NCBI GenBank assembly: GCA_037200925.1
Contig: JBBCGO010000001.1
Location: 383,698-447,697 of the forward strand
Direction of reading: 5' to 3'
Source of the DNA: Candidatus Doudnabacteria bacterium
GTDB taxonomy: Bacteria; Patescibacteriota; Doudnabacteria; UBA920; O2-02-FULL-48-8
Length of the DNA stretch: 64,000 nucleotides
Positions 11,123 through 45,626 of this stretch are shown piece by piece. The notes under the pieces are model-generated. The model worked only from the letters and a program-made list of their open reading frames with translations, was not told where the DNA came from and searched no databases. Each line of letters opens with the position of its first letter. Position 1 is the stretch's first letter. Both the position numbers and the translations under genes were made by a program.

Positions 11123-12088
11123 TTGGGCGACATGACAGAAACAAAGAGCAAACTCCAAAAATACTCTCTCCAATTCCTTGAATACCTGGAAGTTGAACGC
11201 AATCGCTCTCGGCTGACTTTGCGCAACTACGACCATTATCTCAAAAGATTTGTGGATTTTTGCGCCAAGCAAGGAGTCACGGATCCTTCCGAAGTCGACC
11301 TGGAATTGGTCCGGTCTTATCGGCTTTTTTTGAACAGGCTGGCTGCGAAAGACAGACAGCTAAAAATCATCACGCAAAATTATCATTTGATCGCCTTGCG
11401 CAGTTTCCTGAAATATCTGGCCAAGCGGGACGTAAAATCCTTGGCTGCGGAAAAAATTGAATTGCCCAAAACTCCGGCCAGAACCGTGGAGTTCCTGGAT
11501 ATTGAAGATGTCGAACGGCTTATCAATGCAACTGACCAGGAAGACGATAAACTGACCAAATTGCGCGACCGCGCGATCCTTGAGATGCTTTTTTCCACAG
11601 GCCTTCGCATTTCAGAATTAGTAGCCATCAAGCGGGATAACCTCAATCTTAAACGAGGAGAATTTGCCGTGCGCGGAAAAGGGGATAAAATGCGCCTTGT
11701 TTTTCTTTCCAAAGAAGCTCTGGACCACCTGGCAAAATACCTGGATGAGCGCGAAGATAATTCCAAAGCCTTGTTCATCCGCCATGACGCCAAAGAATCC
11801 GTGGAAAAACAAATGGAATCCCTGTCAGAAAAGGCGTCCGGATTGACTGCCCGTACCATCCAGCGCATTATTAAAAAATATGCCAAACTCGCCGGTATCA
11901 TGAAAAAAATAACGCCGCACACTCTGCGGCACTCATTTGCAACCGACCTGCTGACCAATGGCGCGGACCTTCGGTCCGTGCAGGAGCTCCTAGGCCATTC
12001 TTCTATTTCAACCACGCAGATCTATACGCATCTGACCAATAAAAGATTACGTGATGTGTACGAAAAATACCACCGCGACGGGAAATAG
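11123..12088 (+). CDS. Tyrosine site-specific recombinase, XerC/XerD family
   Basis: 321 aa. N-terminal core-binding domain. C-terminal catalytic motifs ...RDRAILEMLFSTGLRISEL..., HTLRHSFATDLL, LGHSSISTTQIYTHL (R-K-H-R-H-Y set). Confidence 0.85.
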   Translation: MGDMTETKSKLQKYSLQFLEYLEVERNRSRLTLRNYDHYLKRFVDFCAKQGVTDPSEVDLELVRSYRLFLNRLAAKDRQLKIITQNYHLIALRSFLKYLAKRDVKSLAAEKIELPKTPARTVEFLDIEDVERLINATDQEDDKLTKLRDRAILEMLFSTGLRISELVAIKRDNLNLKRGEFAVRGKGDKMRLVFLSKEALDHLAKYLDEREDNSKALFIRHDAKESVEKQMESLSEKASGLTARTIQRIIKKYAKLAGIMKKITPHTLRHSFATDLLTNGADLRSVQELLGHSSISTTQIYTHLTNKRLRDVYEKYHRDGK

Positions 12089-14328: not shown

Positions 14329-14940
14329 ATGAGCTTAGCCACCTATAAAAAGAAACGGAAATTCAGCGAAACACCCGAACCTGAAGGCAAACCGATCAAA
14401 GCGAAAGGTGCCTTGCATTTTGTCGTGCAAAAACACCACGCCAGACAGCTGCATTATGACTTCCGCCTGGAACACGATGGGGTACTGGTAAGCTGGGCTG
14501 TGCCCAAAGGGCCATCATTGAAGCTTGCGGAAAAGCACCTGGCAATGAAGGTGGAGGACCATCCGGTTGATTACATGAAATTTGAAGGCAATATTCCGGC
14601 GGGCAATTACGGTGCAGGCTCGGTCATAGTCTGGGATTTTGGCACGTATTTAGCTCTTGGCACGAATTCAGTAGCGGACAGCGAGAAAGCTATCAAACAA
14701 GGACTGAGAGCCGGACAGGTCAAAGTCGTGCTCAGCGGCAAAAAGCTCCAAGGCGGGTTTGCCTTGATAAAACTGAAAAGCAACTGGGGCGGAAAAAATT
14801 CCTGGCTTTTGATCAAAGAAAAAGATTCTTTCGTAAAAAAAACCGACGTCACCAGGCAGGTTAAATCCGTCTTAAGCGGCAAAAGCCTTGCCCAGATCGC
14901 CAAAACAGATAAAGTTTGGAAATCGAATAAGAAAAAATGA
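14329..14940 (+). CDS. LigD-type 3'-phosphoesterase (PE) domain protein, stand-alone
   Basis: YKKKRKFSETPEP..FVVQKHHARQLHYDFRLE..WAVPKGPSL..HPVDYMKFEG.IP.G.YGAG.V..WD.G match the LigD PE domain. The track ORF begins at 14197, but 14197-14310 overlaps the divergent ABC gene. In-frame ATGs at 14311 and 14329 are more plausible starts. Confidence 0.8.
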   Translation: MSLATYKKKRKFSETPEPEGKPIKAKGALHFVVQKHHARQLHYDFRLEHDGVLVSWAVPKGPSLKLAEKHLAMKVEDHPVDYMKFEGNIPAGNYGAGSVIVWDFGTYLALGTNSVADSEKAIKQGLRAGQVKVVLSGKKLQGGFALIKLKSNWGGKNSWLLIKEKDSFVKKTDVTRQVKSVLSGKSLAQIAKTDKVWKSNKKK

Positions 14941-15863
14941 GAGTCCGCCACATCAAACCCATGCTGGCAACGCTGGTTGATAAGCCGTTTGACGCGGATG
15001 GCTGGCTGTTTGAGGTCAAATGGGACGGCTTCCGCGCCATCGCCGAAGTTGAAAATGATCGTGTTGAAATATATTCCAGAAATCTTCTGTCTTTCAACAA
15101 GCGGTTTTCGCCGATCATCAAAAGTTTGCAGGGACACAAATTAAAAGCCGTCCTGGACGGCGAGATCGTGATCTTGGACAGCCGCGGCAAATCGCGTTTC
15201 GAGCTTTTGCAGCATTACCAGCAAACCGGCAAAGGGAACCTGGTTTATTATGTCTTTGATCTCTTATTTCTCAACGGCAAGGACCTCCGAAGCCAGCCGC
15301 TGCTTGAACGAAAAAAACTTCTCAAAAAAATCCTGCCCCGGAATGCCCTTATAAAATATTCGGAGCACGTTTTGGACCACGGCAAAAAATTATACGAGAA
15401 GGCCAAAAAACAAACCTGGGAAGGCATCATGGCCAAAGATTACCAAAGTCCCTACCGTGCGGGCAAAAGAACCAAAGAATGGCAAAAGATCAAAAACCGC
15501 CCGCAACAGGAAGTGGTTATCGGCGGATTTACCAAGCCTTCCGGCAGCCGCAAAAAATTCGGCGCTTTAGTCATGGGTGTTTACGAGCGGGGTAAATTAC
15601 TATACATCGGACACGCCGGCACCGGGTTTGACGAACAAACTTTGAATTTGGTTTATAATAAACTAAAACCGCTGATCCAAAAAAACCCGGCATTTAAAAA
15701 TCCGCCGGAAACCCGCGGAGAAACCACCTGGGTCAAACCCAAACTGGTCGGCGAAGTGGCTTTCGAAGAATGGACAGAAGACGGACATATGCGACAGCCG
15801 GCTTTCCTGGGACTTAGGCCCGACAAAAAAGCAAGTGAAGTAAGAAAAGAACTGCCTAAATAA
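14937..15863 (+). CDS. ATP-dependent DNA ligase (LigD ligase domain), stand-alone
   Basis: 308 aa. Adenylation motif I EVKWDGFRA (KxDG), nucleotidyltransferase plus OB-fold layout. Its start overlaps the PE stop (ATGA). Confidence 0.85.
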   Translation: MRVRHIKPMLATLVDKPFDADGWLFEVKWDGFRAIAEVENDRVEIYSRNLLSFNKRFSPIIKSLQGHKLKAVLDGEIVILDSRGKSRFELLQHYQQTGKGNLVYYVFDLLFLNGKDLRSQPLLERKKLLKKILPRNALIKYSEHVLDHGKKLYEKAKKQTWEGIMAKDYQSPYRAGKRTKEWQKIKNRPQQEVVIGGFTKPSGSRKKFGALVMGVYERGKLLYIGHAGTGFDEQTLNLVYNKLKPLIQKNPAFKNPPETRGETTWVKPKLVGEVAFEEWTEDGHMRQPAFLGLRPDKKASEVRKELPK

Positions 15864-15864
15864 T

Positions 15865-16773
15865 ATGAAACAAGAAACCACTATCAAAATTGAGGGAAAA
15901 GTTCTCAAACTGACCAACCTGGACAAGGTCTTCTGGCCGAAAGAAAAATACACTAAAGGCGACGTCATCGATTATTATCAAAAGATCGCGCCATATATTC
16001 TGCCTTATCTTAAAAACCGGCCGGAATCTTTAAACCGCCACCCCAACGGCATTACAGGCAAAAATTTTTTCCAGAAAGACGTGGACCACATACCGCCTAA
16101 ATGGGCCAAGGTTGAAAATATCTATTCGGAATCCAACGATAAAGATATCCATTATTTGGTCTGCCAGGATAAGGCCACGCTGATCTATATGGCCAATCTT
16201 GGCTGCATAGAGATCAATCCGTGGAATTCCAGGATCGGCAAGCTGCATCATCCGGATTTTATGATCATTGACCTGGACCCGGAAAAAATTTCCTTTGACC
16301 AGGTTGTTGTAGTCGCCCAAACCGTGCACGAGGTTCTAAATTCATTAAAACTTCCAAGCTATTGCAAAACTTCGGGCGCAACCGGGTTGCATATCTATGT
16401 GCCTATGGGCGCCAAATATAATTACGACCAGGTCCGGCATCTGGCGCACCAGATCGTAATTTTGGTCAACAGCAAACTGCCGAACATCACTAGCCTGGAA
16501 CGCCATCCGGCGAAAAGGCAGGGGAAGGTTTACTTGGACTATCTGCAAAATAACAAAGGCCAGACTTTGGCTGTCGCCTACAGCGTCCGCCCTAAACCCG
16601 GGGCTACGGTTTCAACTCCTCTGGAATGGAAAGAAGTGAAAAAAGGCTTGAGCCCGCAGGATTTTAACATCAAAAATATTTTCGCGCGTTTGAAAAAGAA
16701 GGGCGACCTCTGGAAGCCGGTCTTGGGCAAAGGGATTGACCTGAAGTCTGTTTTAAAACGTATTGAAAAATAA
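15865..16773 (+). CDS. LigD primase-polymerase (Pol) domain protein, stand-alone
   Basis: 302 aa. IIDLDP, SGATGLHIYVP and YLDYLQN motifs of the archaeo-eukaryotic primase-type LigD polymerase domain. Begins 1 nt after the ligase stop. Confidence 0.85.
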   Translation: MKQETTIKIEGKVLKLTNLDKVFWPKEKYTKGDVIDYYQKIAPYILPYLKNRPESLNRHPNGITGKNFFQKDVDHIPPKWAKVENIYSESNDKDIHYLVCQDKATLIYMANLGCIEINPWNSRIGKLHHPDFMIIDLDPEKISFDQVVVVAQTVHEVLNSLKLPSYCKTSGATGLHIYVPMGAKYNYDQVRHLAHQIVILVNSKLPNITSLERHPAKRQGKVYLDYLQNNKGQTLAVAYSVRPKPGATVSTPLEWKEVKKGLSPQDFNIKNIFARLKKKGDLWKPVLGKGIDLKSVLKRIEK

Positions 16774-24425: not shown

Positions 24426-24974
24426 TTATTTCCTGAAAGCCGCCCCCTTCTGCCAAGGAGTTCCCAGAGCCGGCAAAACATACATGTCCAACCCATACCA
24501 ACCGGCTACGCGCCAGGCCAGGATCAAAAACAATCCAAGCAATGCCAATAACGGATTAGTGCTGGTCGTTCCTGCAAACAGATAATTTAAGTTCATAAAT
24601 GTGCCGAAGAAAGCGGCAATACCGGTAAATAAGCCCAATATTAAGGCAACTCCGACAAGCAATTCTCCGTAAGCAACCAAATATGAAAAGAAAACGGTGT
24701 GGTGGAGTGCGAATCCGCTGATAAACGAACCATACCAGCCCGAAACACTAGGATGAGCGCCAGTAGTTTTGGCCAAAGCGCCATTTAAGAATCCGGCAAT
24801 GGCTGTTCCTGCTTTCGGACCGACCCAGGTCACATCATGAATTTTTTCCCAGCCCGGGACGATCCATTCGTAGCCCACATAAAGTCGCACAAGCAACCAA
24901 AACCAAGCCATTCTGGTGTCCGCAAAAATGAACCTCGCAAATGGCGGTTCTGCAAACTCAATATTCTTTTGCAT
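24426..24974 (-). CDS. DoxX/DoxD-family membrane protein
   Basis: 182 aa. ARFIFADTRMAWFWLLVRLYVGYEWI... with 4 TM helices is typical of the DoxX family. Confidence 0.7.
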   Translation of the reverse strand: MQKNIEFAEPPFARFIFADTRMAWFWLLVRLYVGYEWIVPGWEKIHDVTWVGPKAGTAIAGFLNGALAKTTGAHPSVSGWYGSFISGFALHHTVFFSYLVAYGELLVGVALILGLFTGIAAFFGTFMNLNYLFAGTTSTNPLLALLGLFLILAWRVAGWYGLDMYVLPALGTPWQKGAAFRK

Positions 24975-25024: not shown

Positions 25025-25513
25025 TTATTGCGTGACTGTAACGATTCCCTGCATATATGGATGGATGGAACAATGGTAATTAAAAGCACCAATTGTGTTG
25101 AAGGTAAAAGAATAGGTCTGATTGGTTGAAAGATTCGAGCTGGCGGGACCTCCATTATCGCCGATTACCGTATGAACAGCTGAATCCTTGTTGGTCCAGA
25201 CGACAGTATCGCCCTTTCTGATCATGATGGAAGTAGGGGTGAAGGCAAAGTTCTGGATAGAAATATAATGAGTTGTCGGTGCAATTACATGCGGCGGCTG
25301 CGGACCCGGAGCAGGAGTCGGCGCAGGGGTTGGTGAGGGTGCCGGGTTTGGAGTGGATGGAGCGACCACATTCAGCGGCTGCGGACCTGGATTCGGAATT
25401 GGCATTGGTGCGGGCGTTGGGTTGGGTGTTTGAGTGGTGGTGGTTTGATTACAAGCAGCAGCCAAAAACGCAACTGTACCAATAGCAATTACAAACTTAT
25501 ATTTAATATTCAT
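25025..25513 (-). CDS. Cupredoxin (type-1 blue copper, plastocyanin/amicyanin-like) lipoprotein
   Basis: Lipobox LAAAC. Pro-rich linker. Copper ligands H(TVI)...C-x2-H-x2-M (YHCSIHPYMQG). Confidence 0.8.
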   Translation of the reverse strand: MNIKYKFVIAIGTVAFLAAACNQTTTTQTPNPTPAPMPIPNPGPQPLNVVAPSTPNPAPSPTPAPTPAPGPQPPHVIAPTTHYISIQNFAFTPTSIMIRKGDTVVWTNKDSAVHTVIGDNGGPASSNLSTNQTYSFTFNTIGAFNYHCSIHPYMQGIVTVTQ

Positions 25514-25525
25514 ATTTTTTGCTTT

Positions 25526-25705
25526 TTAATATCCGCCGGGGCTCGGAGACGGGGTTGGCATCGGCGTTGGAGCCGGCATTGGGTTGCCGGGAGCCGGCGA
25601 CGGCGATGGCATGGCAGCTGGAGTTGTTGAGCTGGTGCTATTGCAGGCCGCGGCCAAAAACGCAACTGCTCCGATTGCAATCAAAATTTTAAATTTTATA
25701 TTCAT
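25526..25705 (-). CDS. Truncated paralog of the cupredoxin leader (lipoprotein signal peptide plus Pro/Ser linker only)
   Basis: MNIKFKILIAIGAVAFLAAACNSTSSTTPAAMPSPSPAPGNPMPAPTPMPTPSPSPGGY followed by a stop. The first 20 aa are near-identical to 25025..25513. The track ORF is extended upstream through the next copy in another frame. Confidence 0.45.
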   Translation of the reverse strand: MNIKFKILIAIGAVAFLAAACNSTSSTTPAAMPSPSPAPGNPMPAPTPMPTPSPSPGGY

Positions 25706-25723
25706 ATATTTATTTTTAATATC

Positions 25724-25847
25724 CGCTGGGGGATGGGGATGGCGACGGTGTGCTGCCGGTTGTTGTCGTTGAACCAGTACTGTTGCATGATGCTGCCAAA
25801 AGAGCAACCGCAGCTATCGCAATGACCAGCTTGTATTTGATATTCAT
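25724..25847 (-). CDS. Second truncated paralog of the cupredoxin leader (41 aa, below the ORF-track size cutoff)
   Basis: Minus translation MNIKYKLVIAIAAVALLAASCNSTGSTTTTGSTPSPSPSPSGY followed by a stop. Same intergenic context (ttaaaaa.aaa.atATGAATAT.AAAT) as the other two copies. Confidence 0.4.
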
Positions 25848-25895
25848 CTTTGTTTCTTTATTTAATTATTAGCAAATATATTATAACATAACAGG

Positions 25896-27140
25896 CTATT
25901 TTTTGGAAAAAAAGATGTTTTTGAATGCGCCACCGAAAAATTCTTCCATATAATCCAGCCCCTTGCCGCTGATCTGCTTTATCGAAGGTATGCGTTTCGG
26001 ATCGTACAAATTAATATAACGATTCTTTTTGCCAAGTATCTGATCGCGCACGATCATGGCCGAAATTGCCGAATAGGTCATGCCATTGCCGGAAAATCCC
26101 GTAACTACGAATGTGTGCGGCATGATCTCGCCTATTAAGCCAAGCCCGTCCGACGGTTCCAGAATGTCACCTGACCATTTGCGCGTTATTTTATATTTAT
26201 TGCCGCCCAAAACGGTTTTTATATATTTTTCCAGAGCATTAAAGCTTTTATCAGGACTCACTTTAATTTCCTTGCGGTTATCCTCACCTCCCGCGATCAT
26301 CCGGTCAAAAACGCCAAAACTGTCGATCCGGAAATAATGATAAGGATTATGCATATCAAGGTACATGCCTTCGGGAATCAGTCCCTTGGCAATTTCAAGT
26401 TCGTAGACGTAAGTGACGTACATGCCTTTTTTAAAGCGCGTGCCCTGGTTGGTAAACGGCTTATATGTGGCAATTAAAACATTTTTCGCCGAGACCCGGC
26501 CTGTTTTGGTTTTTAGGGTCAGGCCTTCAATTGCCAAAACTTCCGAATTGGTAAATATCTTCGCTCCCAAAGACTCAGCCGCACCGGCCAATCCTTGCGC
26601 GAACTTGATCGGATGGAACATGGCCTGTTTCGAAACTTTCAGAAAGCCGGAATTCCTAAAATTTAATTTGCTGCCTTCTTTTGAAAGTTCAGCCTCAAAT
26701 CCTGATTTTTTTACGGCTCCATACTCCCCTCTGAGTTCTTCAAATTCCTTTTGGTCTTGGGCGTAAGTATAGATCGGAACAACCTTAAACTCGCATTCGA
26801 TGTTTTCTTTCTGAACAATTTGAGCAATCAGATCAATGGCGTCTTGCCCGGATCCCCAGACCAGTTTTGCTTTATTCGGGCCGAAAAGCTTGACCAGCTC
26901 GGCAAATGAGCTGTCAATCAGTTTTGTAATAAAAGCGGTTGTGTACATTGTGGTAGCCTGCAGGATCTTTTCATCCTTTTCCAAAACTACAACCTTCAAC
27001 CCCGCTTTGGCCAAAAAATAGGCATTGAAAATGCCCGCAAGGCCCCCGCCGATAATTGCCACATCAGCTTCAATATTCTTGGCAAGCTTTGGATAATTTT
27101 TACTCTGCTTCAGCCCCCAACTTGATTCTTCTTTTATCAT
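25896..27140 (-). CDS. FAD-dependent oxidoreductase (DAO family)
   Basis: 414 aa. N-terminal Rossmann motif VAIIGGGLAGIFNAYFLAKAGLKVVVLEKDE. Confidence 0.75.
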   Translation of the reverse strand: MIKEESSWGLKQSKNYPKLAKNIEADVAIIGGGLAGIFNAYFLAKAGLKVVVLEKDEKILQATTMYTTAFITKLIDSSFAELVKLFGPNKAKLVWGSGQDAIDLIAQIVQKENIECEFKVVPIYTYAQDQKEFEELRGEYGAVKKSGFEAELSKEGSKLNFRNSGFLKVSKQAMFHPIKFAQGLAGAAESLGAKIFTNSEVLAIEGLTLKTKTGRVSAKNVLIATYKPFTNQGTRFKKGMYVTYVYELEIAKGLIPEGMYLDMHNPYHYFRIDSFGVFDRMIAGGEDNRKEIKVSPDKSFNALEKYIKTVLGGNKYKITRKWSGDILEPSDGLGLIGEIMPHTFVVTGFSGNGMTYSAISAMIVRDQILGKKNRYINLYDPKRIPSIKQISGKGLDYMEEFFGGAFKNIFFSKK

Positions 27141-32155: not shown

Positions 32156-34525
32156 TTATGTTTTAAGCAAGCGGCTTTGGTTTGCGATATTTTCCAATCT
32201 GGAAAATCTTTTCGCAACCAAATACTGAGCGATGGCGCAAAGGACGAACAAGATCGCGATCGGGGCCGTATTCACTCCGGATAAATGCGTGATGTCAAAA
32301 AATTTGGTCGCCAAGGGGATTTGAAAAACCGCCCACAAAGTGACAATTTCGAACACGGCAAATCCGGATAACATCATTTTTTGAGTGCGCGAAGTAAAGC
32401 CCTGATATACGCTCGGCGTGAATATCAGGAACAAAAAAGCCAGAACAATATAGGCAAGCACAACAAGCGTGTTCGACTCTGCTATTTTTAAATATTTCGG
32501 ACTCATGAAAAATATTACCCCCAGAGCCAAAGCTTGAAAGACGGCGCTAAATAGCGCAAACGGCAAAACCCGGCGCAAAAACGATTTGGCCACACTTATC
32601 CGGAGTTCCGCAGCTGGCCTAATGGCCCAATAAAAAATCAGCACGCTGGGCAGTCCGATCGTAAAATAATCCATCAAAGTAATATTCAAGGGAGTGAGCG
32701 GGAAAATATATCCGAAAATGCTAAGGATAACGAAAATAAAAAAACCTAAGATCACCTGATTGAAGAACAGGCTGGACAGGATCTCAATATTCCGTATAAT
32801 ATTTTCTGCGCGCTTCACTCCTTCCGGCAGCGCTGAAAAACTGTTGTTGATGAGGACCACGGCCGCAAGTCTTCTTGTCGCTGGTGCTCCGTCAAACATG
32901 GCGATGCCCAGATCTGATTTTTTTATGGCCAGAGCGTCATTCACCCCATCCCCGACCATGGCGGTAAATCCGGATTTTTTGAAGCCGGTGATGATCTTTT
33001 CTTTCTGTTCAGGATTGATCCTGGCGAAGATGGTATAATCGGAAGTTTTTTTGTCAAAATCATCCTCTGACCATTCCTCTATTTCAAGCCCGGTAATGAT
33101 CGCGTCCGCATTTTTAATTCCGGCCAAGACCGTTACTGCGTGAACGGTGGCGGGATTATCCCCGGAAATCACGCGGATGACCGTTCCCCGGTCCTGAAAA
33201 AAACTGACCACATCCTTGATCCCCGGCCGAAGGTTATTAAAAAAAACAAAGACTGCGACCAATGAAAGTTTCGCCTGTATCAGGTCAGTGGGCAGCACGC
33301 GGCCTTTCTTTCTGGCAACGCATAGCAGGCGCTTGCCGTCGCGGGCGTGCGTTTCCAAAAGCTCCTTCAGCCATTTCTGTTCTTCCTCTGAACAATGCGG
33401 TAAAAAAATATCCGGGCCTCCGACCAAAATTACCTCGTCTTCTGCGCCTTTTTTAGCCAGAACGGCCCCATACTTCCTTAAAGAAGAAAATGGGATGGAT
33501 TGGGCCTTCGATGCCGCGTAATCGCCGCCGATAAATTTTTTGACCGCACGAATGGTTTCCGACGAATCGTCTGATGCCCGCAAGTAAGCGATCGTCTGCT
33601 CTTCCGCTTCTTTTTTTATAATCCCGGTTGGCACAAACATATTTTCGACCACCAGGATATTTTCAGTCAGAGTGCCGGTTTTGTCTATGCAAAGATTCTT
33701 GATCCGCCCAAGTTTTTCAGTGGCGTTGATCTCCTGGAGCAAAACATGTTTTCGCAAAAGACTGACTGCGCCATACGCGAATAAAATGGTCGTGGCCAGG
33801 ATCAAACCCTGCGGCACGAGCATGCTGGCGAGCGCTCCCACATTCTTGACGATGCTCACTATCCCCTGATCAACTATGCTCCCGCGCGCGATAACGAATA
33901 TCAGAACGAGCATCAGCAGATAGCCCGTATACCTGATCACCGTATTTATCGAACGCTGGATGGGACTGTAGTTAGTTGAGTACTTTTTGATATTTTTGGT
34001 CATTTGCGAGATCCGGCTGTCGGCAACCGGCGTTTCAACCCGCAGCACTCCCACACCTGCGGTAACAATGCCCCCGGCCAGCACTTTCTCTCCGGAGGAT
34101 TTAGCAAACGAATTCGATTCTCCGGTAAGAAGCGCGGTATTTACTTCCAAACCGTGCGCGGAAAGCAGGATCCCGTCGCACGGGATCTGGTCACCGAGCG
34201 CAAGCTTGATACGATCATTCTTCTGAATATTGTCGGTAAGTACGGACTCCTGTGTTCCGTTTGAATTCAGGCGGACATAATGCAAAGCGGTGAGCAATTG
34301 CAGCTTTTCCAACGCCAGCAAAGCGCGCACTTCCTGGACGATGCCGATCAGAACCGCGGTAGATATGGCCAATGCAAAGAAAAATCCCGCCTGGGTCTGA
34401 TGAAATACAAGCAGGATTATCACAACAGCATAAATGATTATGTTCGTGAACGAAAGAACATTGCGAAAAATGATCGGACCGAGATCTTTGAGTATATTTT
34501 TTATAAAATCAAATATTTTATCCAT
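32156..34525 (-). CDS. P-type cation-transporting ATPase
   Basis: 789 aa. Phosphorylation site CIDKTGTLTEN, hinge MVGDGVNDALAIKKSDLGIAM, TGES-like actuator (LTGES), 8-10 TM helices. Confidence 0.9.
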   Translation of the reverse strand: MDKIFDFIKNILKDLGPIIFRNVLSFTNIIIYAVVIILLVFHQTQAGFFFALAISTAVLIGIVQEVRALLALEKLQLLTALHYVRLNSNGTQESVLTDNIQKNDRIKLALGDQIPCDGILLSAHGLEVNTALLTGESNSFAKSSGEKVLAGGIVTAGVGVLRVETPVADSRISQMTKNIKKYSTNYSPIQRSINTVIRYTGYLLMLVLIFVIARGSIVDQGIVSIVKNVGALASMLVPQGLILATTILFAYGAVSLLRKHVLLQEINATEKLGRIKNLCIDKTGTLTENILVVENMFVPTGIIKKEAEEQTIAYLRASDDSSETIRAVKKFIGGDYAASKAQSIPFSSLRKYGAVLAKKGAEDEVILVGGPDIFLPHCSEEEQKWLKELLETHARDGKRLLCVARKKGRVLPTDLIQAKLSLVAVFVFFNNLRPGIKDVVSFFQDRGTVIRVISGDNPATVHAVTVLAGIKNADAIITGLEIEEWSEDDFDKKTSDYTIFARINPEQKEKIITGFKKSGFTAMVGDGVNDALAIKKSDLGIAMFDGAPATRRLAAVVLINNSFSALPEGVKRAENIIRNIEILSSLFFNQVILGFFIFVILSIFGYIFPLTPLNITLMDYFTIGLPSVLIFYWAIRPAAELRISVAKSFLRRVLPFALFSAVFQALALGVIFFMSPKYLKIAESNTLVVLAYIVLAFLFLIFTPSVYQGFTSRTQKMMLSGFAVFEIVTLWAVFQIPLATKFFDITHLSGVNTAPIAILFVLCAIAQYLVAKRFSRLENIANQSRLLKT

Positions 34526-36585: not shown

Positions 36586-38217
36586 TTAACCGAATGTAAA
36601 CGTGAATGCTTCAAAGCCCGCCGCAGGAATGGTAATTTCTATCGTATGATCAGTATAATCGGCTGAATCAAAAAGCGTATATAGCTCAGAAGCACCGACC
36701 ATCACATCAGGCTGGGTCTTGCCGTCCACCGTAATGCTGATCTTTTGCGGCGTTGGGCTGTCTGCCACAATATGCACTTTGCCGGAATGGAACTTCAGCC
36801 TGATCTTACCGCTGGGTTTTGTCATCGTGATCTTATCGGAGCTGAACTGCCAAGCGCCTGACAAGGCAAAATCATTCAGATCCAAATTACTCGGGAAACT
36901 GTAATTCGTTTCCTTGCTTGAAGGCTGCTGCTGGGAAGTTAAATTAGCAAGCCGGTCAGTTCCGAAATACATTTCCGGCGAGCCGATTCCCGAAAGGTCC
37001 TGGCCCGGCTCATTCAGCGATTCCGTTCCCAGCCCCAGCAGGGTCCGGATGGCGTTTTCCATTTTATCATAATTCCCTTCGCCGAAGTCAAAGTAGACGA
37101 CATTGCCGTTCTGGTCGATCAGATACTCTGCGGGCCAATACTGATTCGAGTAGGCATTCCAAGTCGCCAATTCATTATCCTGTGCCACCGGATAATTTAT
37201 TTTGAACCGCTTGATCGCATCCGCTACATTGGCCGTGTCTTTTTCAAACTCAAACTCCGGCGAATGGACGCCCACGACAACAAACCCTTTGTCTTTATAA
37301 GTGTCATACCATTTGGTGACAAACGGCAGGGTCCGGATGCAGTTGATGCAGCTGTAGGTCCAGAAATCTATCAGCACCACTTTGCCTTTAAGTTCCTTCA
37401 TTGTCAGCGGGTCTGAATTCAGCCAATGGTCAATGCCGGTAAATTCAGGAGACGGCCCGTAATTTTTAATATCAACTGCTGTACCATTTGATCGGTTTGG
37501 ATTATTATTTGGCACGAGCTTGCTTTCCAGTGTTGAGGTCGGGAATATATTGGCAAGCTGATTCTCTATCTGGATATCAAAATTATAATACATGGCCACA
37601 GCCAGAAGAATGATCAATATTCCAAAAATTCTCTGGAGCAGGACCGAGTATTTGGCTATTCCGCGGATCTTCGTGGTCACAGCCTGACTGGCGTAAGCGA
37701 TGATCAGCATCGGTATCCCCGCTCCGATAGCATATGCTGCTAGAAGCACCAAAGATCTGACGAAATTTGCCTGCAGGGCTATCAGGGTCAGTATTGCGCC
37801 CAATACAGGGCCTGCACACGGCGTCCACACAACACCCAGGGTCATTCCGAGTATAAATCCGCCCAGATTGTCACTGCGCAGTTTTCCGGCTTGGCTGGCG
37901 CGATTGATGACGCCATTCAATCGCATAGTCAGAAGTTCAAACGGCTTTGACCAGATCATGAATACGCCGAAAATTCCCAAAAGAACGATCGCCGAGTTGC
38001 GCAAGATGTTCGGATTCAGTCCCAAATGCCTGGTCAGGTAGGACAAAAAAACGCCCAAAACGGCGAATACGATGACGAATCCGGAAACAATATATAACGG
38101 TCTTGTTTTGCTGGTATGGCCTATGGATGTGCCGAGCAGAACCGGGAGCAAAGGCAAAATACAAGGCGCTCCTATCGTCAGAACGCCTGCTAAAATCGCA
38201 AATAATATCTGGATCAT
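36586..38217 (-). CDS. DipZ-like thiol-disulfide oxidoreductase: CcdA/DsbD transmembrane domain plus thioredoxin-fold (CxxC) domain plus C-terminal beta-rich domain
   Basis: 543 aa. 6-8 TM with conserved Cys (GAPCILP, TPCAGP). TlpA-like LIDFWTYSCINCIRTLP. Confidence 0.8.
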   Translation of the reverse strand: MIQILFAILAGVLTIGAPCILPLLPVLLGTSIGHTSKTRPLYIVSGFVIVFAVLGVFLSYLTRHLGLNPNILRNSAIVLLGIFGVFMIWSKPFELLTMRLNGVINRASQAGKLRSDNLGGFILGMTLGVVWTPCAGPVLGAILTLIALQANFVRSLVLLAAYAIGAGIPMLIIAYASQAVTTKIRGIAKYSVLLQRIFGILIILLAVAMYYNFDIQIENQLANIFPTSTLESKLVPNNNPNRSNGTAVDIKNYGPSPEFTGIDHWLNSDPLTMKELKGKVVLIDFWTYSCINCIRTLPFVTKWYDTYKDKGFVVVGVHSPEFEFEKDTANVADAIKRFKINYPVAQDNELATWNAYSNQYWPAEYLIDQNGNVVYFDFGEGNYDKMENAIRTLLGLGTESLNEPGQDLSGIGSPEMYFGTDRLANLTSQQQPSSKETNYSFPSNLDLNDFALSGAWQFSSDKITMTKPSGKIRLKFHSGKVHIVADSPTPQKISITVDGKTQPDVMVGASELYTLFDSADYTDHTIEITIPAAGFEAFTFTFG

Positions 38218-39674: not shown

Positions 39675-42600
39675 TTACTCTTTAATGTCCCCTCCCGTAC
39701 TAGGAAAACTGGGTACTTGTCCAGAATTGTTCATTTGAACAATGGGTCCTTGGGGGAGCAGCAGATCCAGGCTGTTGGCAGGGAGCACGTCTTTGAATTG
39801 ATAGCCATAGGAGTAGAAGACTGCTTCAGACGGAAAACCATACCGAAGATCAGTGCCCAGAAGATATACGGTTCCCTGATTAAGAATCAAAGCTCCTACC
39901 GGGTGCCTGATGTTGGAAGAAAGGATGGATTCCCCTTCAGGAATAGCACTCGTGTCTGCTCGTATGACATTGGATAGTTTGTATCCTAGGGCTGTGAATA
40001 CGGCCATAGAGACAAAAGGACGTTTAAAGCCCTGGGACATGACATAGATCACCCCATGGTCCAGCAGAAGAGAGCCGTCTGATGTTAGGGTATTGGAAGC
40101 CTGCTGATTCGTACCTGGTGGTACATATGGGGCACAACAGGTTGGGCCTCCTCCGCCAGAAGGTGGAGGTGGAGGCGGAGGGGGCGGAGTTGAACCACCG
40201 AAATTCCAGTTGATATTGCCTCCCCCATCAATACAATTGGTACAGGTGACCACGGATGTAGCATGAGATGAGGATACGGAGAGATATGATAGAACACTTG
40301 AACCTTGGGAGTCTAGATTCCAGGCAGAGGAACCTGTGGTGAATTTCTGGATGCGGCCGTTGTTGGCATCTGCGACATAAATATTACCGGAGTGGTCCAT
40401 TGTAATACCTAGCGGAACAGCAAACTGGCCATCGCCCGAACCAGGTATCCCGCTCTGACATCCGGAGGTGCAAATTTGAAACGCATTTGTTGTTCCATCT
40501 TGAACACCCCAGCCGAATGTGAGGAGTAAATTACCCGAAGGGTCGAATTTCTCAATGCGGTTGTTTTGGATGTTGGCGACATAAATATTATTTGATGAGT
40601 CAATTGCAATACCTTGGGGATCGATAAACTGTCCATAGCCCCCACCTTCCGAACCAGCCTGGCATCCGGATGTGCAGATCTCAAACTGATCTGCTCCATC
40701 CTGCACTCCCCAGCCGATGGTATACTCAAAGACCGGCTCACCCGTGTTCAGAGAAAATTTCTGGATGCGGCTATTGTCAGAATCTGTGACATAGATATTA
40801 TTGAACGAGTCAATTGCAAGGAATGCTGGCTCATTGAACTGGCCGGCATCCGAACCTCGTATCCCACCCTGGCATCCGGAGGTGCAAATTTGAAACGCAT
40901 TTGTTGTTCCATCTTGAACACCCCAGCCGAAGGTGGAAAGAAAAGCACCGTCAGGGTCAAATTTCTGGATGCGGTTATTGCTAGCATCTACAACATAAAT
41001 GTTGCCCGAAGAGTCAAATACAATTCCTTGAGGATACTCAAATTGCCCATCGCCGGAACCTTCGGTTCCCCATTGAGTTACAAATCCTTCACCGGAATTG
41101 AATACCTCAATACGATGATTACTGCTATCCGTGACATAAATATTATTGGAAGAGTCAATTGCAATACCTCCGGGAACTAAGAATTGGCCGTCACCGCTGC
41201 CGCCAATCCCAGTTTGACAGCCCGATGTGCAGATCTCAAACTGATCTGCTCCAGTTTGTACTCCCCAGCCGAAGGTGGAAAGGAAATTGCCGGAAGGGTC
41301 AAATTTCTGGATGCGGCTATTTCCTTGATCCACGACATAAATATTACCTGAAGAGTCATTTGCAATGCCTATAGGATTATTTAATTCTCCTTCTGGGCTA
41401 CTATTGCCGAACTTTGAGAGAAAATTCTCTGAAGGATCAAATTTCTCGATACGTATGCCGCTGTCCGCAACATAAATATTGCCGGAAGCATCAACCGTAA
41501 CACCTACAGGTAAACTTGTCTGCCCCTCGCCCCCTGGCACATCTGGGTCATCGGCGGGTATCCCAGCCTGGCAGCCGGATGTGCAAATCTGAAATTCTTC
41601 TGTTCCGTCCAGCACTCCCCAGCCGAAAGTAGATTGAAAGGCGCCATTAGAACCAAATACCTGAATGCGACTATTGCCATAATCTGCAACATAAATATTA
41701 TCTGAGGAGTCGGTTGTAATACCGCCGGATGCATTGAATTGTCCGGCACCTGGGCCGGATATCCCGGCCTGACATCCTGACGTGCAGGTTTGGAATGCAT
41801 TTGCACCAGTCTGCACCCCCCAGCCAAAGGTAGATTGAAAGGCGCCCGAAGTATTAAATTTCTGGATACGGCTATTGTCGTTGTCTGCAACATAAATATT
41901 ATCTGAGGAGTCAATGGCTATATAATAAGGATGCTTTAATTGGCCATCGCCTGAGCCAAAACTTCCCCATGCGGAAATAAAGTGGCCGTCGGGACCAAAT
42001 TTCTGGATGCGATTATTGCCGGCATCAGAAATATAGACATTGCCTGAAGAATCGGCCGCAACACTAATACCGCCAGACCCGTCAAATTGGCCGGGACCGG
42101 AGCCTGCTATTCCGGCCTGACAGTTTGAATTACAGACTTGGAATGCAGGTGTTCCATCCAGCACCCCCCAACCAAAGGTTTTAATGAAAGTACCGGCGGA
42201 TGTGAATTCCTGGACGCGATTAGTATCTACTATGTAAATATTATTAGAGGAATCAACTATAATACCGCCGGGCGCATCGAATTGGCCGTCTCCCGTGCCG
42301 AAACTTCCCCATTTGATAATAAAATTGCCGGAAGGATCAAATTTCTGGATGCGGTTATTGTTAACATCTACGGCGTAAATATTTCCTGAGGAGTCATGCG
42401 CAATGCCTGTGATCTGGCTAAAATTTCCATCAACGGTATTGCTTCCTATACCAAACTTCGAAGCAAACACAGGCTGACCGGTGCCGGGTGCATGGTTCAA
42501 AGTCAGTAATCCCGTAGAAACACCAGTCAGAGTAAGTGTGCCTGTGACAGTTGTAGTATTAGCAGGGTCAAAGGATAAGGTGTCTGCAATGGTTGTGATC

Positions 42601-45600
42601 TTGGTTAAGTTATAGAAAGTATTGGAACCAAGTATGGTTTGGTTGGTTCCTGTGAGGATAACTGTGGAGGTATCGGCATGCAATTCGCCGTTATTGGTAA
42701 GGTTCCCTGAGATATTGAATGTGTTTGTACCCAGATGTAAGGCGCCCCCATCTGAGATGGTGATATCATCGATGGATTGATCATTGGTTAATGTAACTTC
42801 ATTATTTATCGTGGCGGAATCCAGATAAGTTGGATAATCAATACCCGCGATCCCGGGAGAAGTATTGCCCCAGGTAGCCCCATCATTCCAATTGCCGTCT
42901 TGTACAGAAGTAAAAGAAGAAGGAACCAATACGGTTACAAAGTTCCAGTTGATGTTCCCTCCTTCATCAGTACAATTGGTACAAGTGACGGCAGATGCCG
43001 AGTGAGATGAAGATACGGAAAGATATGATAGTGCGCTGGATCCTGAAGAGTTTAGATTCCAGGTATCGGCAGAGGTGGTGAATTTTTGGGTGTAAACATA
43101 AATATTATTTAATGGGTCAACCGCTATGATCCCAGGTTCTGAGAACTGGCCATCACCCGCGAAACCATTTATTCCACCCTGACATCCGGAGAAACAAGTC
43201 TCAAAATGATTTGCTCCATCCAGCACGCCCCAGCCGAATGTGAGAAGGAAATGGCCTGCTGGGTCAAGTTTCTGGATACGGCTGCTTTGACTGTCGCTGA
43301 CATAAAGGTTGCCCGATGAGTCGATGGCAATACCTTGAGGACCATTAAGCTCACCATCACCCATACCGGCTATTCCAGCCTGGCAATTGGATGTACAAGA
43401 CTCCCACATATTTGCGCCAGTTTGTACTCCCCAGCCGAAAGTGGAGAGAAACGTGCCCGAGGAATCAAATTTCTGGATGCGATTATTGAAATTATCCGGG
43501 ACATAAACATTATTAGAAGAATCAACCGCTACACTGTTAAGCCCGCTAAACTCACTTTCGCTTGTGCCGGGACTTCCCCATTTGGTAACGAAGTTGCCGG
43601 AAGGGCCGAATTTCTCGATGCGGGTATTCCCGTTATCTGCAACATAAAGATTGCCGAATGAGTCGAAGACCATAGCCTGAGAATTATTAAATTGGCCATC
43701 GCCTGAACCAACTATTCCACCCTGGCATCCGGAGGTACAGATCTCAAATTGATTTGCTCCATCCTGCACTCCCCAGCCGAAAGTGGAAAGGAAATGACCT
43801 CCCGAGTCAAATTTTTCAATACGGCTGTTTAGATTTCCGGCATCACTAACGTATATGTTACCCAGGGTGTCGGTTGTAATACCCTGAGGAAGATTGAATT
43901 GCCCGTCACCCGAACCTGCTAAGCCAACCTGACATCCGGAGGTACAGATCTCAAATTGATTTGCTCCATCCTGCACTCCCCAGCCAAAGGTAAAGAGGAA
44001 ATGGCCTGACGGATCAAATTTCTGGATGCGGTCACTGAAACTGTCTGCAACATAAAAATTTCCTGAAGCGTCGGCTCTTATGCCTCCGGCTTGATTTATT
44101 ACGCCTTCCGCTTGGTTATCGCCGAATATTGAGAGGAAATTACCCGAAGGATCAAATATCTTGACTCTGTAATTGTTCGAGTCCGTGACGTAAACTTTGC
44201 CGGAAGAGTCGGTTGAAATACCTGCGGGGGAAAAAACAAAAAAACTGTCACCGGAGGGAGGACTTTCCCACTCGGTGAAAAAACTGCCGTCAGAGTGAAA
44301 TTTCTCTATGCGGGCATTATTACCGGCCCAATCAGCAACATAAATATCGCCCGCTTGATCAACTGTAATAACCTGGGGATTAGAAAACTGGTCCAGACCA
44401 TCTCCTGTAATTCCAGCCAGGCAAGGCGTTGTTAAGTTTGTACAGATCTCAAAATGATTTGCTCCATCCTGTACTCCCCATCCGAAGGTGGACAGGAAAG
44501 TGCCGGCCGAATCAAATTTCTCAACTCGATAGTTGCCGTTATCGATTACGTAGAGATCATCTGATGAATCAATGGCGATGCCTAAGGGCTGATTAAACTC
44601 GCCATCGCCAGAGCCAATACTTCCCCACTGGGAAATGTAATTACCCGCAGAGTCAAATTTCTGGATACGATTATTGTTAGTATCTGTCACATAAAGAAAG
44701 TCGTCAGATGAGTCGATGGTAATGCCTGAAGGCTGATTAAACTCGCCATCGCCAGAGCCAATACTTCCCCACTGGGAAATGTAATTACCGGAAGAATCGA
44801 ATTTTTCGATACGATTATTGCCACTATCTACAACGTAGACATCAGAAGCGTCAGCAGTAGTTGTAATACCGGTAACACTATCAAACTGCCCATTGTCTGT
44901 GCCACCACCTCCCCATCTCGTAATGAAGTTGCCTGAGTGGTCAAGTTTCTGGATGTAATTATTGGAGTCATCCGCCACGTAGAAGTTACCCAAAGAATCG
45001 GTGGCAATGGCAGTCGGCGACTGAAAATTTCCACCAACCGAAAATGTATCAATCCCGATCCTGGAATCAAAAACAGGGCCATTGCTGGGTGAATGATTAA
45101 CAGTCAGCAGTCCCGTAGAAACTCCGGTAAGGGTCAGTGTGCCTGTGACGGTAGTAGTATTAGCCGGATCAAAGGAAAGAGTGTCTGCAACAGTTGTGAT
45201 TTTGGTTAAGTTATAAAAGTTATTATTTCCCAGTATTGTCTGGTTGCTGCCTGTAAGGATAACATGGGAAGTGCCGGCATTCAGGGTGCCGTTATTAGTA
45301 AAGTTCCCGGAGACAGAGAAAACGCGTGTTCCCAGATCTAAAGTGCCGCCATCTGAGATAGTGATATCGTGGACGGATCGGTCTTGTGTTAGTGTTACGT
45401 TGTTTTCTATAGTCGCATCATCTGTCGGACCTGGAAAATCAACCCCAATGACTCCGGGAGAGGTATTGCCCCAGGTAGCTCCGTCATTCCAGTTCCCGTC
45501 CTGCGCGGAGGTGAAAGAGGAGGCAAAAGCTTTATGGGGAGCCAGAATAGCCAAAGCAAAAAAAACCGCCAGCAAAAAAGGCATTGCTGGAAAAAATTTC

Positions 45601-45626
45601 AATCGTGTTTTTGTTTCAGGCCCCAT
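39675..45626 (-). CDS. Giant secreted NHL-repeat (multi-beta-propeller) protein with poly-Pro hinge and conserved C-terminal domain
   Basis: 1983 aa. Signal peptide. More than 40 NHL-type blades (recurring ..YV.D..N.RIQKFD..G.F...FG..G...G.F..P.GIA.D..). Cys-containing TSGCQ insertions. PPPPPPPPPSGGGGPTCCAPY then an approximately 230-aa C-terminal domain. Confidence 0.85.
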   Translation of the reverse strand: MGPETKTRLKFFPAMPFLLAVFFALAILAPHKAFASSFTSAQDGNWNDGATWGNTSPGVIGVDFPGPTDDATIENNVTLTQDRSVHDITISDGGTLDLGTRVFSVSGNFTNNGTLNAGTSHVILTGSNQTILGNNNFYNLTKITTVADTLSFDPANTTTVTGTLTLTGVSTGLLTVNHSPSNGPVFDSRIGIDTFSVGGNFQSPTAIATDSLGNFYVADDSNNYIQKLDHSGNFITRWGGGGTDNGQFDSVTGITTTADASDVYVVDSGNNRIEKFDSSGNYISQWGSIGSGDGEFNQPSGITIDSSDDFLYVTDTNNNRIQKFDSAGNYISQWGSIGSGDGEFNQPLGIAIDSSDDLYVIDNGNYRVEKFDSAGTFLSTFGWGVQDGANHFEICTNLTTPCLAGITGDGLDQFSNPQVITVDQAGDIYVADWAGNNARIEKFHSDGSFFTEWESPPSGDSFFVFSPAGISTDSSGKVYVTDSNNYRVKIFDPSGNFLSIFGDNQAEGVINQAGGIRADASGNFYVADSFSDRIQKFDPSGHFLFTFGWGVQDGANQFEICTSGCQVGLAGSGDGQFNLPQGITTDTLGNIYVSDAGNLNSRIEKFDSGGHFLSTFGWGVQDGANQFEICTSGCQGGIVGSGDGQFNNSQAMVFDSFGNLYVADNGNTRIEKFGPSGNFVTKWGSPGTSESEFSGLNSVAVDSSNNVYVPDNFNNRIQKFDSSGTFLSTFGWGVQTGANMWESCTSNCQAGIAGMGDGELNGPQGIAIDSSGNLYVSDSQSSRIQKLDPAGHFLLTFGWGVLDGANHFETCFSGCQGGINGFAGDGQFSEPGIIAVDPLNNIYVYTQKFTTSADTWNLNSSGSSALSYLSVSSSHSASAVTCTNCTDEGGNINWNFVTVLVPSSFTSVQDGNWNDGATWGNTSPGIAGIDYPTYLDSATINNEVTLTNDQSIDDITISDGGALHLGTNTFNISGNLTNNGELHADTSTVILTGTNQTILGSNTFYNLTKITTIADTLSFDPANTTTVTGTLTLTGVSTGLLTLNHAPGTGQPVFASKFGIGSNTVDGNFSQITGIAHDSSGNIYAVDVNNNRIQKFDPSGNFIIKWGSFGTGDGQFDAPGGIIVDSSNNIYIVDTNRVQEFTSAGTFIKTFGWGVLDGTPAFQVCNSNCQAGIAGSGPGQFDGSGGISVAADSSGNVYISDAGNNRIQKFGPDGHFISAWGSFGSGDGQLKHPYYIAIDSSDNIYVADNDNSRIQKFNTSGAFQSTFGWGVQTGANAFQTCTSGCQAGISGPGAGQFNASGGITTDSSDNIYVADYGNSRIQVFGSNGAFQSTFGWGVLDGTEEFQICTSGCQAGIPADDPDVPGGEGQTSLPVGVTVDASGNIYVADSGIRIEKFDPSENFLSKFGNSSPEGELNNPIGIANDSSGNIYVVDQGNSRIQKFDPSGNFLSTFGWGVQTGADQFEICTSGCQTGIGGSGDGQFLVPGGIAIDSSNNIYVTDSSNHRIEVFNSGEGFVTQWGTEGSGDGQFEYPQGIVFDSSGNIYVVDASNNRIQKFDPDGAFLSTFGWGVQDGTTNAFQICTSGCQGGIRGSDAGQFNEPAFLAIDSFNNIYVTDSDNSRIQKFSLNTGEPVFEYTIGWGVQDGADQFEICTSGCQAGSEGGGYGQFIDPQGIAIDSSNNIYVANIQNNRIEKFDPSGNLLLTFGWGVQDGTTNAFQICTSGCQSGIPGSGDGQFAVPLGITMDHSGNIYVADANNGRIQKFTTGSSAWNLDSQGSSVLSYLSVSSSHATSVVTCTNCIDGGGNINWNFGGSTPPPPPPPPPSGGGGPTCCAPYVPPGTNQQASNTLTSDGSLLLDHGVIYVMSQGFKRPFVSMAVFTALGYKLSNVIRADTSAIPEGESILSSNIRHPVGALILNQGTVYLLGTDLRYGFPSEAVFYSYGYQFKDVLPANSLDLLLPQGPIVQMNNSGQVPSFPSTGGDIKE

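Follow-up and report, generated by a model that had tools for sequence, protein, structure and literature searches.

A 64,000-nt stretch of DNA from a Candidatus Doudnabacteria genome, referred to here as the window, contains at positions 25025-25860 a cupredoxin gene (C) that is preceded by two short open reading frames (ORFs), A and B, each of which begins with the lipoprotein leader of the cupredoxin. The reading that we favour, and hold to be fairly probable, takes A and B for real small lipoprotein genes that have escaped annotation, which arose when part of the cupredoxin gene was duplicated in tandem long ago and which selection has since preserved. The feature was confirmed on the minus strand, where the three ORFs follow one another in tandem when read from 25880 to 25025, and the original prediction of a tandem triplication of the cupredoxin leader and linker, with the copper domain in the third copy only, is borne out by the ORFs, the repeats and the Pfam matches. 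The parts of this array are as follows:

25716-25847, minus strand: mini-ORF A, a 43-residue predicted prolipoprotein (MNIKYKLVIAIAAVALLAASCNSTGSTTTTGSTPSPSPSPSGY, then stop), with leader residues 1-20 and lipobox LAAS followed by C21
25706-25715, minus strand: spacer from the stop of A to the start of B, 10 nt, A-rich; A and B are in different frames
25526-25705, minus strand: mini-ORF B, a 59-residue predicted prolipoprotein (MNIKFKILIAIGAVAFLAAACNSTSSTTPAAMPSPSPAPGNPMPAPTPMPTPSPSPGGY, then stop), with lipobox LAAA followed by C21
25514-25525, minus strand: spacer from the stop of B to the start of C, 12 nt, A-rich; B and C are in the same frame
25025-25513, minus strand: gene C, an amicyanin-like cupredoxin of 162 residues
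25451-25513, minus strand: lipoprotein leader of C (residues 1-21, including Cys21)
25274-25450, minus strand: linker of C (residues 22-80), Pro/Thr-rich by composition and predicted to be disordered
25025-25273, minus strand: cupredoxin domain of C (residues 81-162 plus stop), type-1 copper, amicyanin/plastocyanin-like

The leader common to A, B and C reads MNIK[YF]K…LAA[AS]C, and a repeat search returned a single direct-repeat family of three 86-nt copies (25434-25519, 25626-25711 and 25768-25853) that extends from the A-rich start region through the leader into the first mature codons. Alignment of the three units, which had been put forward as a check, placed the DNA identity of the copies to the reference copy at 76% and 66%, and B can be aligned with C along the entire linker with in-frame gaps, in a DNA alignment of low-complexity sequence. 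The three direct repeats originally described are therefore present, while the proposed unit size of 170-180 bp is not, since the units are spaced 192 and 142 nt from start to start; similarly, the length of 59 residues given for B is correct, and that of A is 43 residues rather than 41. At their other ends, A and B share their final codons and the bases that follow, GGA-TAT-TAA-AAA (Gly-Tyr, stop, A-rich). In the best DNA alignment the GGY end of B falls near Pro-Pro-His-Val of C, about nine residues ahead of the folded domain, whereas the end of A gives no alignment near the linker/domain boundary of C. The array was not called by Tandem Repeats Finder, because the copies are too diverged.

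The likeness between the leaders is beyond chance, with 16-18 of 22 residues matching from leader to leader, as compared with 9 of 22 for the best non-self match to any leader when the six frames of the 64-kb window were searched (about 58,600 segments of 22 residues without a stop). An assembly artefact, which had been named as an outcome that would overturn the prediction, has been ruled out: over 10,489 nt that include all three copies, the independent Logan assembly of SRR28211699 does not differ from the window by a single base, and repeat mis-assembly cannot produce copies in which a quarter to a third of the bases differ.

The lipobox rule of PROSITE PS51257 reads {DERK}(6)-[LIVMFWSTAG](2)-[LIVMFYSTAGCQ]-[AGS]-C, with the Cys at 15-35, a positive n-region and a hydrophobic h-region. 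This rule is satisfied by the leaders of A, B and C and by that of one relative, with Cys21, Lys4 and Lys6. The predicted mature peptide of A has 23 residues, C-NSTGSTTTTGSTPSPSPSPSGY, and that of B has 39, is rich in Pro, Ser and Thr, contains Met-Pro three times and ends in GGY. In both mature peptides Pro, Ser, Thr, Gly, Ala and Asn together make up 87-91% of the residues and the C-terminus is Gly-Tyr, and the sole Cys in A and in B is the lipobox Cys21; neither mature peptide contains Lys or Arg. Pfam gave nothing for A and B at E ≤ 0.01 except a low-complexity match to New_glue that lies under its cut-off, and both ORFs fall below the family cut-offs of Entericidin (Pfam PF08085) and PG1828 (NF050142), the latter at 16.4 bits vs 50.

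The nearest likeness in layout is to entericidin A/B of E. coli, adjacent paralogous small lipoprotein genes whose mature parts are amphipathic helices. A and B are similar to them in being two adjoining paralogues of about 40-60 codons with a lipoprotein signal, a lipobox and a very short mature peptide; they differ in that they have no sequence relationship to the entericidins (no Pfam or NCBIfam match above cut-off), in that their mature parts are Pro/Ser/Thr low-complexity stalks rather than amphipathic helices, and in their origin, which lies in the 5' portion of the adjacent cupredoxin gene.

A second lipoprotein is encoded elsewhere in the window, at 55524-56018 on the minus strand (164 residues, beginning MKKIIFLVLGLGLLAAACNSQTAAPNPSS); it shares the LAAACN lipobox and likewise has a Pro/Ser/Thr linker, but its n/h-region is different and Pfam finds no domain in it.

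Age of the copies and selection on the leaders

Over 22 codons the leaders of A, B and C differ from one another by 14-20 nt, with third positions accounting for 14 of 20, 13 of 18 and 10 of 14 of the differences, and these result in 4-6 amino-acid changes (73-82% identity). In a neutral simulation with an equal number of substitutions, a mean of 9-12 amino-acid changes was expected, and the probability of the observed number or fewer was 1e-4 for A-B, <5e-5 for A-C and 4e-4 for B-C. Even within these 22 codons, 34-47% of the simulated sequences acquired a stop; in the real sequences every copy has an intact lipobox, and the frames of A and B are open. By the Nei-Gojobori method the proportion of synonymous differences between leaders (pS) is 0.70-0.86, as opposed to 0.08-0.14 for non-synonymous differences (pN). 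The leaders of A, B and C are under purifying selection on the encoded peptide.

At residues conserved between leaders, the number of differing codons was 9, 10 and 9 in the three comparisons, where random draws from the codon usage of the genome give 9.2, 9.7 and 10.4. Because codon choice at these residues is as scrambled as in random draws, the synonymous sites are saturated, the duplications are old and there has been no recent gene conversion, of which no trace was found at synonymous sites. The last codons and following bases shared by A and B also indicate that the truncated form predates the separation of A from B.

Among the possibilities raised by the original prediction, these observations favour expressed lipopeptides, with the third-position bias, the excess of pS over pN, the intact lipobox, the open frames and the shared Gly-Tyr-stop all pointing in this direction, and A and B would on this evidence be expressed genes.

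Flanking features and related loci

Three features next to the array bear on its expression and on its history:

25896-27140, minus strand: DAO-type FAD-dependent oxidoreductase (Pfam DAO), 48 nt upstream of A; the conserved anchor gene ahead of the leader ORF in relatives
25880-25909, minus strand: predicted promoter-like site, TTTCCA, 18 nt, TG-n-TATAAT, between the DAO stop and A (consensus scan)
24426-24974, minus strand: DoxX-family membrane protein (Pfam DoxX), 50 nt downstream of C

The predicted promoter-like site upstream of A has an extended -10 and matches the consensus at 10 of 12 positions, and in two related lineages a TGTTATAAT / TGTGATAAA box is found equally far from the ATG. 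A scan for terminator-like sites on the minus strand between A and C found none. The start contexts of A, B and C are A-rich and lack a Shine-Dalgarno sequence, like those of about 30 of the 36 other long ORFs in the window. Shine-Dalgarno-like motifs occur upstream of only about 6 of these 36, and several window ORFs have TATAAT-like boxes within 10-20 nt of the start codon, a hint that mRNA leaders may be very short or missing. A structured RNA or riboswitch was ruled out by the non-significant fold of the region (z = -0.77) and by the lack of any noteworthy Rfam match. Read-through of the TAA, which would fuse B to C in their shared frame, was set aside, as a second signal peptide would then sit inside the protein and there is no sign of TAA recoding.

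The locus was also compared with related genomes, as the original prediction had suggested. In a synteny comparison anchored on the DAO gene in eight relatives, the arrangement of DAO followed by a leader ORF was kept only in the P0126 and P0128 lineages, where the DAO protein is 69% identical; the other DAO relatives are not syntenic. The two lineages share a layout of DAO, a short gap and an ORF that starts with MNIKYKVVIALCAVVLLAAACDSTSQ (contigs L086-L088) or MSIKYKIAILLSAVV (L095), the former matching A at 18 of 26 residues. These leader ORFs lie at 5288-5365 in L086, 3739-3816 in L087, 3156-3233 in L088 and 4240-4285 in L095. At synonymous sites the L086 leader stands nearer to A and B than the three window leaders stand to one another, with 6 differing synonymous positions from A and 4 from B vs saturation expectations of 9.4 and 8.1; the numbers are small, and this closeness suggests that the triplication predates the split between these species.

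The exact sequences of A and B are absent from a collection of 15 billion proteins, which in the case of A indicates that no gene call has ever been made for it. A degenerate DNA pattern for MNIK[YF]KxxIAI returned one unrelated lipoprotein only from the JGI metagenomes, and no relevant literature was found on CPR (Candidate Phyla Radiation) lipoproteins or cupredoxins, or on truncated leader duplications. At the locus of P0003, among the closest cupredoxins that bear a lipobox, a large gene lies directly upstream and there are no mini-ORFs. A further observation comes from another metagenome, where the 145-residue lipoprotein P0122 (L084, 649-1086) has a leader and first mature residues (MKLKYKIVISLAAVTLLAAACNKTNSTTPAAS) like those of B, with 55% identity over 38 residues, followed by an unrelated body without Pfam domains. 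This protein hints that the leader module may have been reused before a different cargo.

Several results weigh against A and B as conserved, functional lipoprotein genes. An exhaustive phmmer search of B against 1.84 billion representatives found only lipoprotein P0122 and one junk match, and a word-index profile search of A and B against a 5.8-billion collection gave no match. Among 80 cupredoxin loci of other species, taken from GTDB species representatives and scanned for ORFs that share the cupredoxin N-terminus, none has leader-only upstream ORFs. All four relative contigs, from Logan k=31 and MEGAHIT assemblies, end 15-26 codons into the leader ORF, before any truncated form would be visible. 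Pfam scans of window ORFs revealed neither Lgt nor LspA, the enzymes of lipidation and cleavage, among those that they covered. The selection test itself draws on only 22 codons per copy and a simple uniform-mutation null. In addition, it is the leader that is best conserved; the mature parts are low-complexity and vary in length, and selection may therefore not be on the mature peptide.

If A and B are nevertheless genes of this kind, the locus may have originated in an old tandem duplication of the A-rich start region, the leader and the Pro/Ser/Thr linker that ended near the linker/domain boundary, and the truncated copy would then have been duplicated again to give A and B. The alignment of the end of B near the end of the C linker would fit duplication of a leader and stalk module, within the limits of a low-complexity alignment. 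A, B and C would be transcribed from the promoter just downstream of the DAO gene, and translation of each ORF would begin at an A-rich start region of its own that has no Shine-Dalgarno sequence, as is usual in this genome; with spacers of 10-12 nt, re-initiation would be possible too. Processing would follow the standard lipoprotein pathway, with Sec export, lipidation by Lgt at Cys21 and cleavage by signal peptidase II. The expected products would be two lipid-anchored peptides, of 23 and 39 residues, and a cupredoxin on a stalk of about 60 residues, so that A and B may be pictured as "headless stalks", extended and probably disordered Pro/Ser/Thr surface peptides that end in Gly-Tyr. We infer that A and B are transcribed, translated and lipidated, and any role of the mature peptides could be that of a surface or glycan-bearing coat beside the glycosyltransferase cluster or of a partner of the cupredoxin and DoxX; selection may instead act at the level of the leader, through coupling of translation and targeting or through a signal-peptide product.

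Competing readings of the two small ORFs

One alternative is that A and B are regulatory upstream ORFs, whose translation and membrane targeting tune cupredoxin translation or couple to it by re-initiation across the 10-12 nt spacers, or sense lipoprotein or Sec capacity in the manner of SecM, MifM and VemP, which are secretion-monitor leader peptides. A and B are similar to these in being short upstream ORFs with an N-terminal targeting signal right before the next gene of an operon, and the very short spacers, the lack of Shine-Dalgarno sequences and the shared strand and operon are consistent with such a role, as are the concentration of selection on the leader, the variation in linker length from 22 to 38 residues and the proline-rich tails that stop right ahead of the next start codon. 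SecM, MifM and VemP, however, have a C-terminal arrest motif and a downstream gene of Sec/YidC type, while inspection of A and B revealed no known arrest motif and no consecutive prolines, the downstream gene encodes a cupredoxin rather than a component of the secretion machinery, and there is no RNA structure for a stalled ribosome to remodel. The presence of two successive copies would also be hard to explain on these grounds, as would the retention of the linker composition and the Gly-Tyr end, and we consider regulation by upstream ORFs unlikely.

It could also be supposed that A and B are non-functional remnants, decaying partial duplicates of the cupredoxin gene as the original prediction had allowed. 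This would agree with their being truncated copies without the copper domain, reported by no gene caller, lacking homologues in protein collections and found in an arrangement that none of 80 other cupredoxin loci shows. The selection signal contradicts this view, since the leaders have kept their identity, their lipobox and their open frames across a time long enough to saturate synonymous sites, with P ≤ 4e-4 in a neutral simulation in which many leaders gained a stop, and this explanation is accordingly given little credence.

A still more doubtful reading is that of an active repeat array, in which the leaders serve as substrates of homologous recombination for copy-number change or for switching the cupredoxin on and off, as in mycoplasma surface lipoproteins. 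The Vlp, Vsp and Vsa lipoproteins of mycoplasmas are likewise encoded by adjoining genes with a shared prolipoprotein leader and repetitive low-complexity surface regions, in a small-genome organism dependent on other cells, and the direct tandem repeats with the same leader recall them; in the two related lineages, 4 of 4 contigs end inside the orthologous leader ORF, as repeats or heterogeneity would cause, and this applies to the relatives only. Those break points are suggestive of a repeat or population-variable region there, without being proof. In contrast to the mycoplasma genes, whose 5' DNA is nearly identical between members, the copies in this genome are 66-76% identical and share exact runs of at most 8, 11 and 16 nt, a short length for exchange that depends on RecA, and codon choice carries no signal of gene conversion. 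Neither of the mycoplasma switch elements, an invertible segment and a long poly-A promoter tract, was found: the repeat search detected no inverted repeats flanking the array and there is no long homopolymer tract in the promoter spacer. No recombinase lies closer than a tyrosine integrase 13 kb from the array, at 11123-12088, the NCBIfam leader model of mycoplasma variable lipoproteins (NF033817) is not matched (13.4 bits for A and 13.5 for B vs a cut-off of 22), and two assemblies of the locus are identical. The switching that had been proposed is thus not supported in this genome.

Least probable is that A and B are exported precursors of a ribosomally synthesised and post-translationally modified peptide (RiPP), for example copper-binding or the source of a Tyr-derived cofactor, and processed together with the DoxX protein, the FAD oxidoreductase and the cupredoxin: two paralogous, small and predictedly exported peptides with a conserved C-terminal Gly-Tyr beside a DoxX gene in a copper-related context do resemble bufferin/HvfA-type precursors, which likewise have Sec signal peptides and adjoining DoxX genes (PMC11626156), yet this reading was dropped because neither the MNIO (DUF692) and DUF2063 partners of that system nor a radical-SAM enzyme or other maturase occur within about 10 kb, A and B lack the several core cysteines and have none beyond that of the lipobox, the DoxX protein is only generically similar to the HvfX family of copper-binding RiPP maturation (27.8 bits, far under the cut-off of 80), and DoxX is dispensable for bufferin modification (PMC11626156).

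Returning to A and B as retained small lipoprotein genes, a bolder extension can be put forward, on which we would place little weight. The MNIKYK…LAAAC leader with its Pro/Ser/Thr stalk might be a conserved self-duplicating cassette behind DAO in a clade of Doudnabacteria, the headless copies forming a new family of tiny surface lipopeptides with a Gly-Tyr end whose copy number or sequence varies from one population to another, which would explain the contig breaks. Such peptides could act with the cupredoxin and DoxX redox pair or carry surface glycans, or the released signal peptides could be the selected product, as with the pheromones that enterococci derive from lipoproteins.

Gene C, its neighbourhood and the meaning of the locus

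Gene C is an ordinary membrane-tethered blue-copper protein. It scores above the Pfam gathering thresholds of PF00127 (Copper-bind; 34 bits vs 21.2) and PF13473 (Cupredoxin_1; 33 vs 27), and its copper ligands H114, C148, H151 and M154 are invariant across 26 homologues. In the AlphaFold model a confident beta-sandwich begins at residue 81, with His-Tyr at residues 82-83 and a predicted local distance difference test score (pLDDT) of 95-98; there is no secondary structure before residue 81, and pLDDT is about 50-65 over residues 1-60. The top Foldseek matches are a Nitrosopumilus cupredoxin and amicyanins (E ~1e-9), and phmmer against the PDB also returned amicyanins (E ~1e-11). C is nonetheless amicyanin-like rather than an equivalog, as it falls below the amicyanin equivalog model TIGR02657 (51.6 bits vs 110.2) and also under the equivalog cut-offs of halocyanin and plastocyanin. 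The NCBI annotation of C, in a Candidatus Doudnabacteria metagenome-assembled genome, is cupredoxin (MEJ0021427.1). Compared with known membrane-tethered cupredoxins with Pro/Thr-rich linkers, such as those of the amicyanin/plastocyanin family and the lipobox-anchored halocyanins, C is similar in its His-Cys-His-Met site, its fold and its N-terminal anchor followed by a disordered linker. It differs in that most of its close homologues are anchored by a transmembrane helix, where C has a lipobox, and in that no examined homologue has leader-only copies upstream, where C has two.

The array belongs to a run of genes on the same strand, in the order GT2, GT4 and GT4 glycosyltransferases, a methyltransferase, the DAO-type FAD oxidoreductase, A, B, the cupredoxin, DoxX and a NAGPA-domain protein, with purine genes also among the neighbours. 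A predicted promoter-like site lies at 25042-25014 ahead of the DoxX gene, which is likely to be either in the same transcription unit as C or under its own promoter. In relative L095, a DoxX-like gene (2368-2871; 31% identity, E 6e-10) is located directly upstream of DAO, an arrangement from which it appears that DoxX, DAO and the leader ORF travel together. Homologues of DAO also adjoin homologues of the cupredoxin in five other CPR loci (L042, L024, L018, L008 and L064) of Paceibacterota, Saccharibacteria and Nomurabacteria, at 38% identity in three of them, and this recurrence suggests a functional pairing across CPR lineages.

Further away, a P-type ATPase at 32156-34525 (minus strand) was considered as a link to copper pumping and rejected, as it lacks a CPC motif and is not a copper pump; together with a DsbD/CcdA-redoxin-thioredoxin fusion at 36586-38217 (minus strand), it lies upstream of the glycosyltransferase cluster. 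Two adjoining giant proteins at 39675-45626 and 45664-51459 (minus strand; 1983 and 1931 residues), with NHL/beta-propeller repeats and in one case a GDSL lipase domain, are probably large surface proteins. The tyrosine recombinase of the phage-integrase family at 11123-12088 (plus strand) is near a pair formed by an ATP-dependent DNA ligase and a LigD primase-polymerase (14937-16773, plus strand), and this region may be the edge of a mobile element or a repair module of the non-homologous end joining type.

A and B fit a known category, that of small lipoproteins and retained partial duplicates, and nothing at the locus points to a new mechanism. Gene callers passed over both ORFs in two assemblies, so that genes made of little more than a leader may escape notice systematically. 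If expressed, A and B would show cleanly how a partial duplication, of leader and linker, can survive as new small genes instead of decaying, and they would add two unannotated surface lipopeptides to an organism of the CPR, a group in which the envelope and the contact with hosts are poorly understood.

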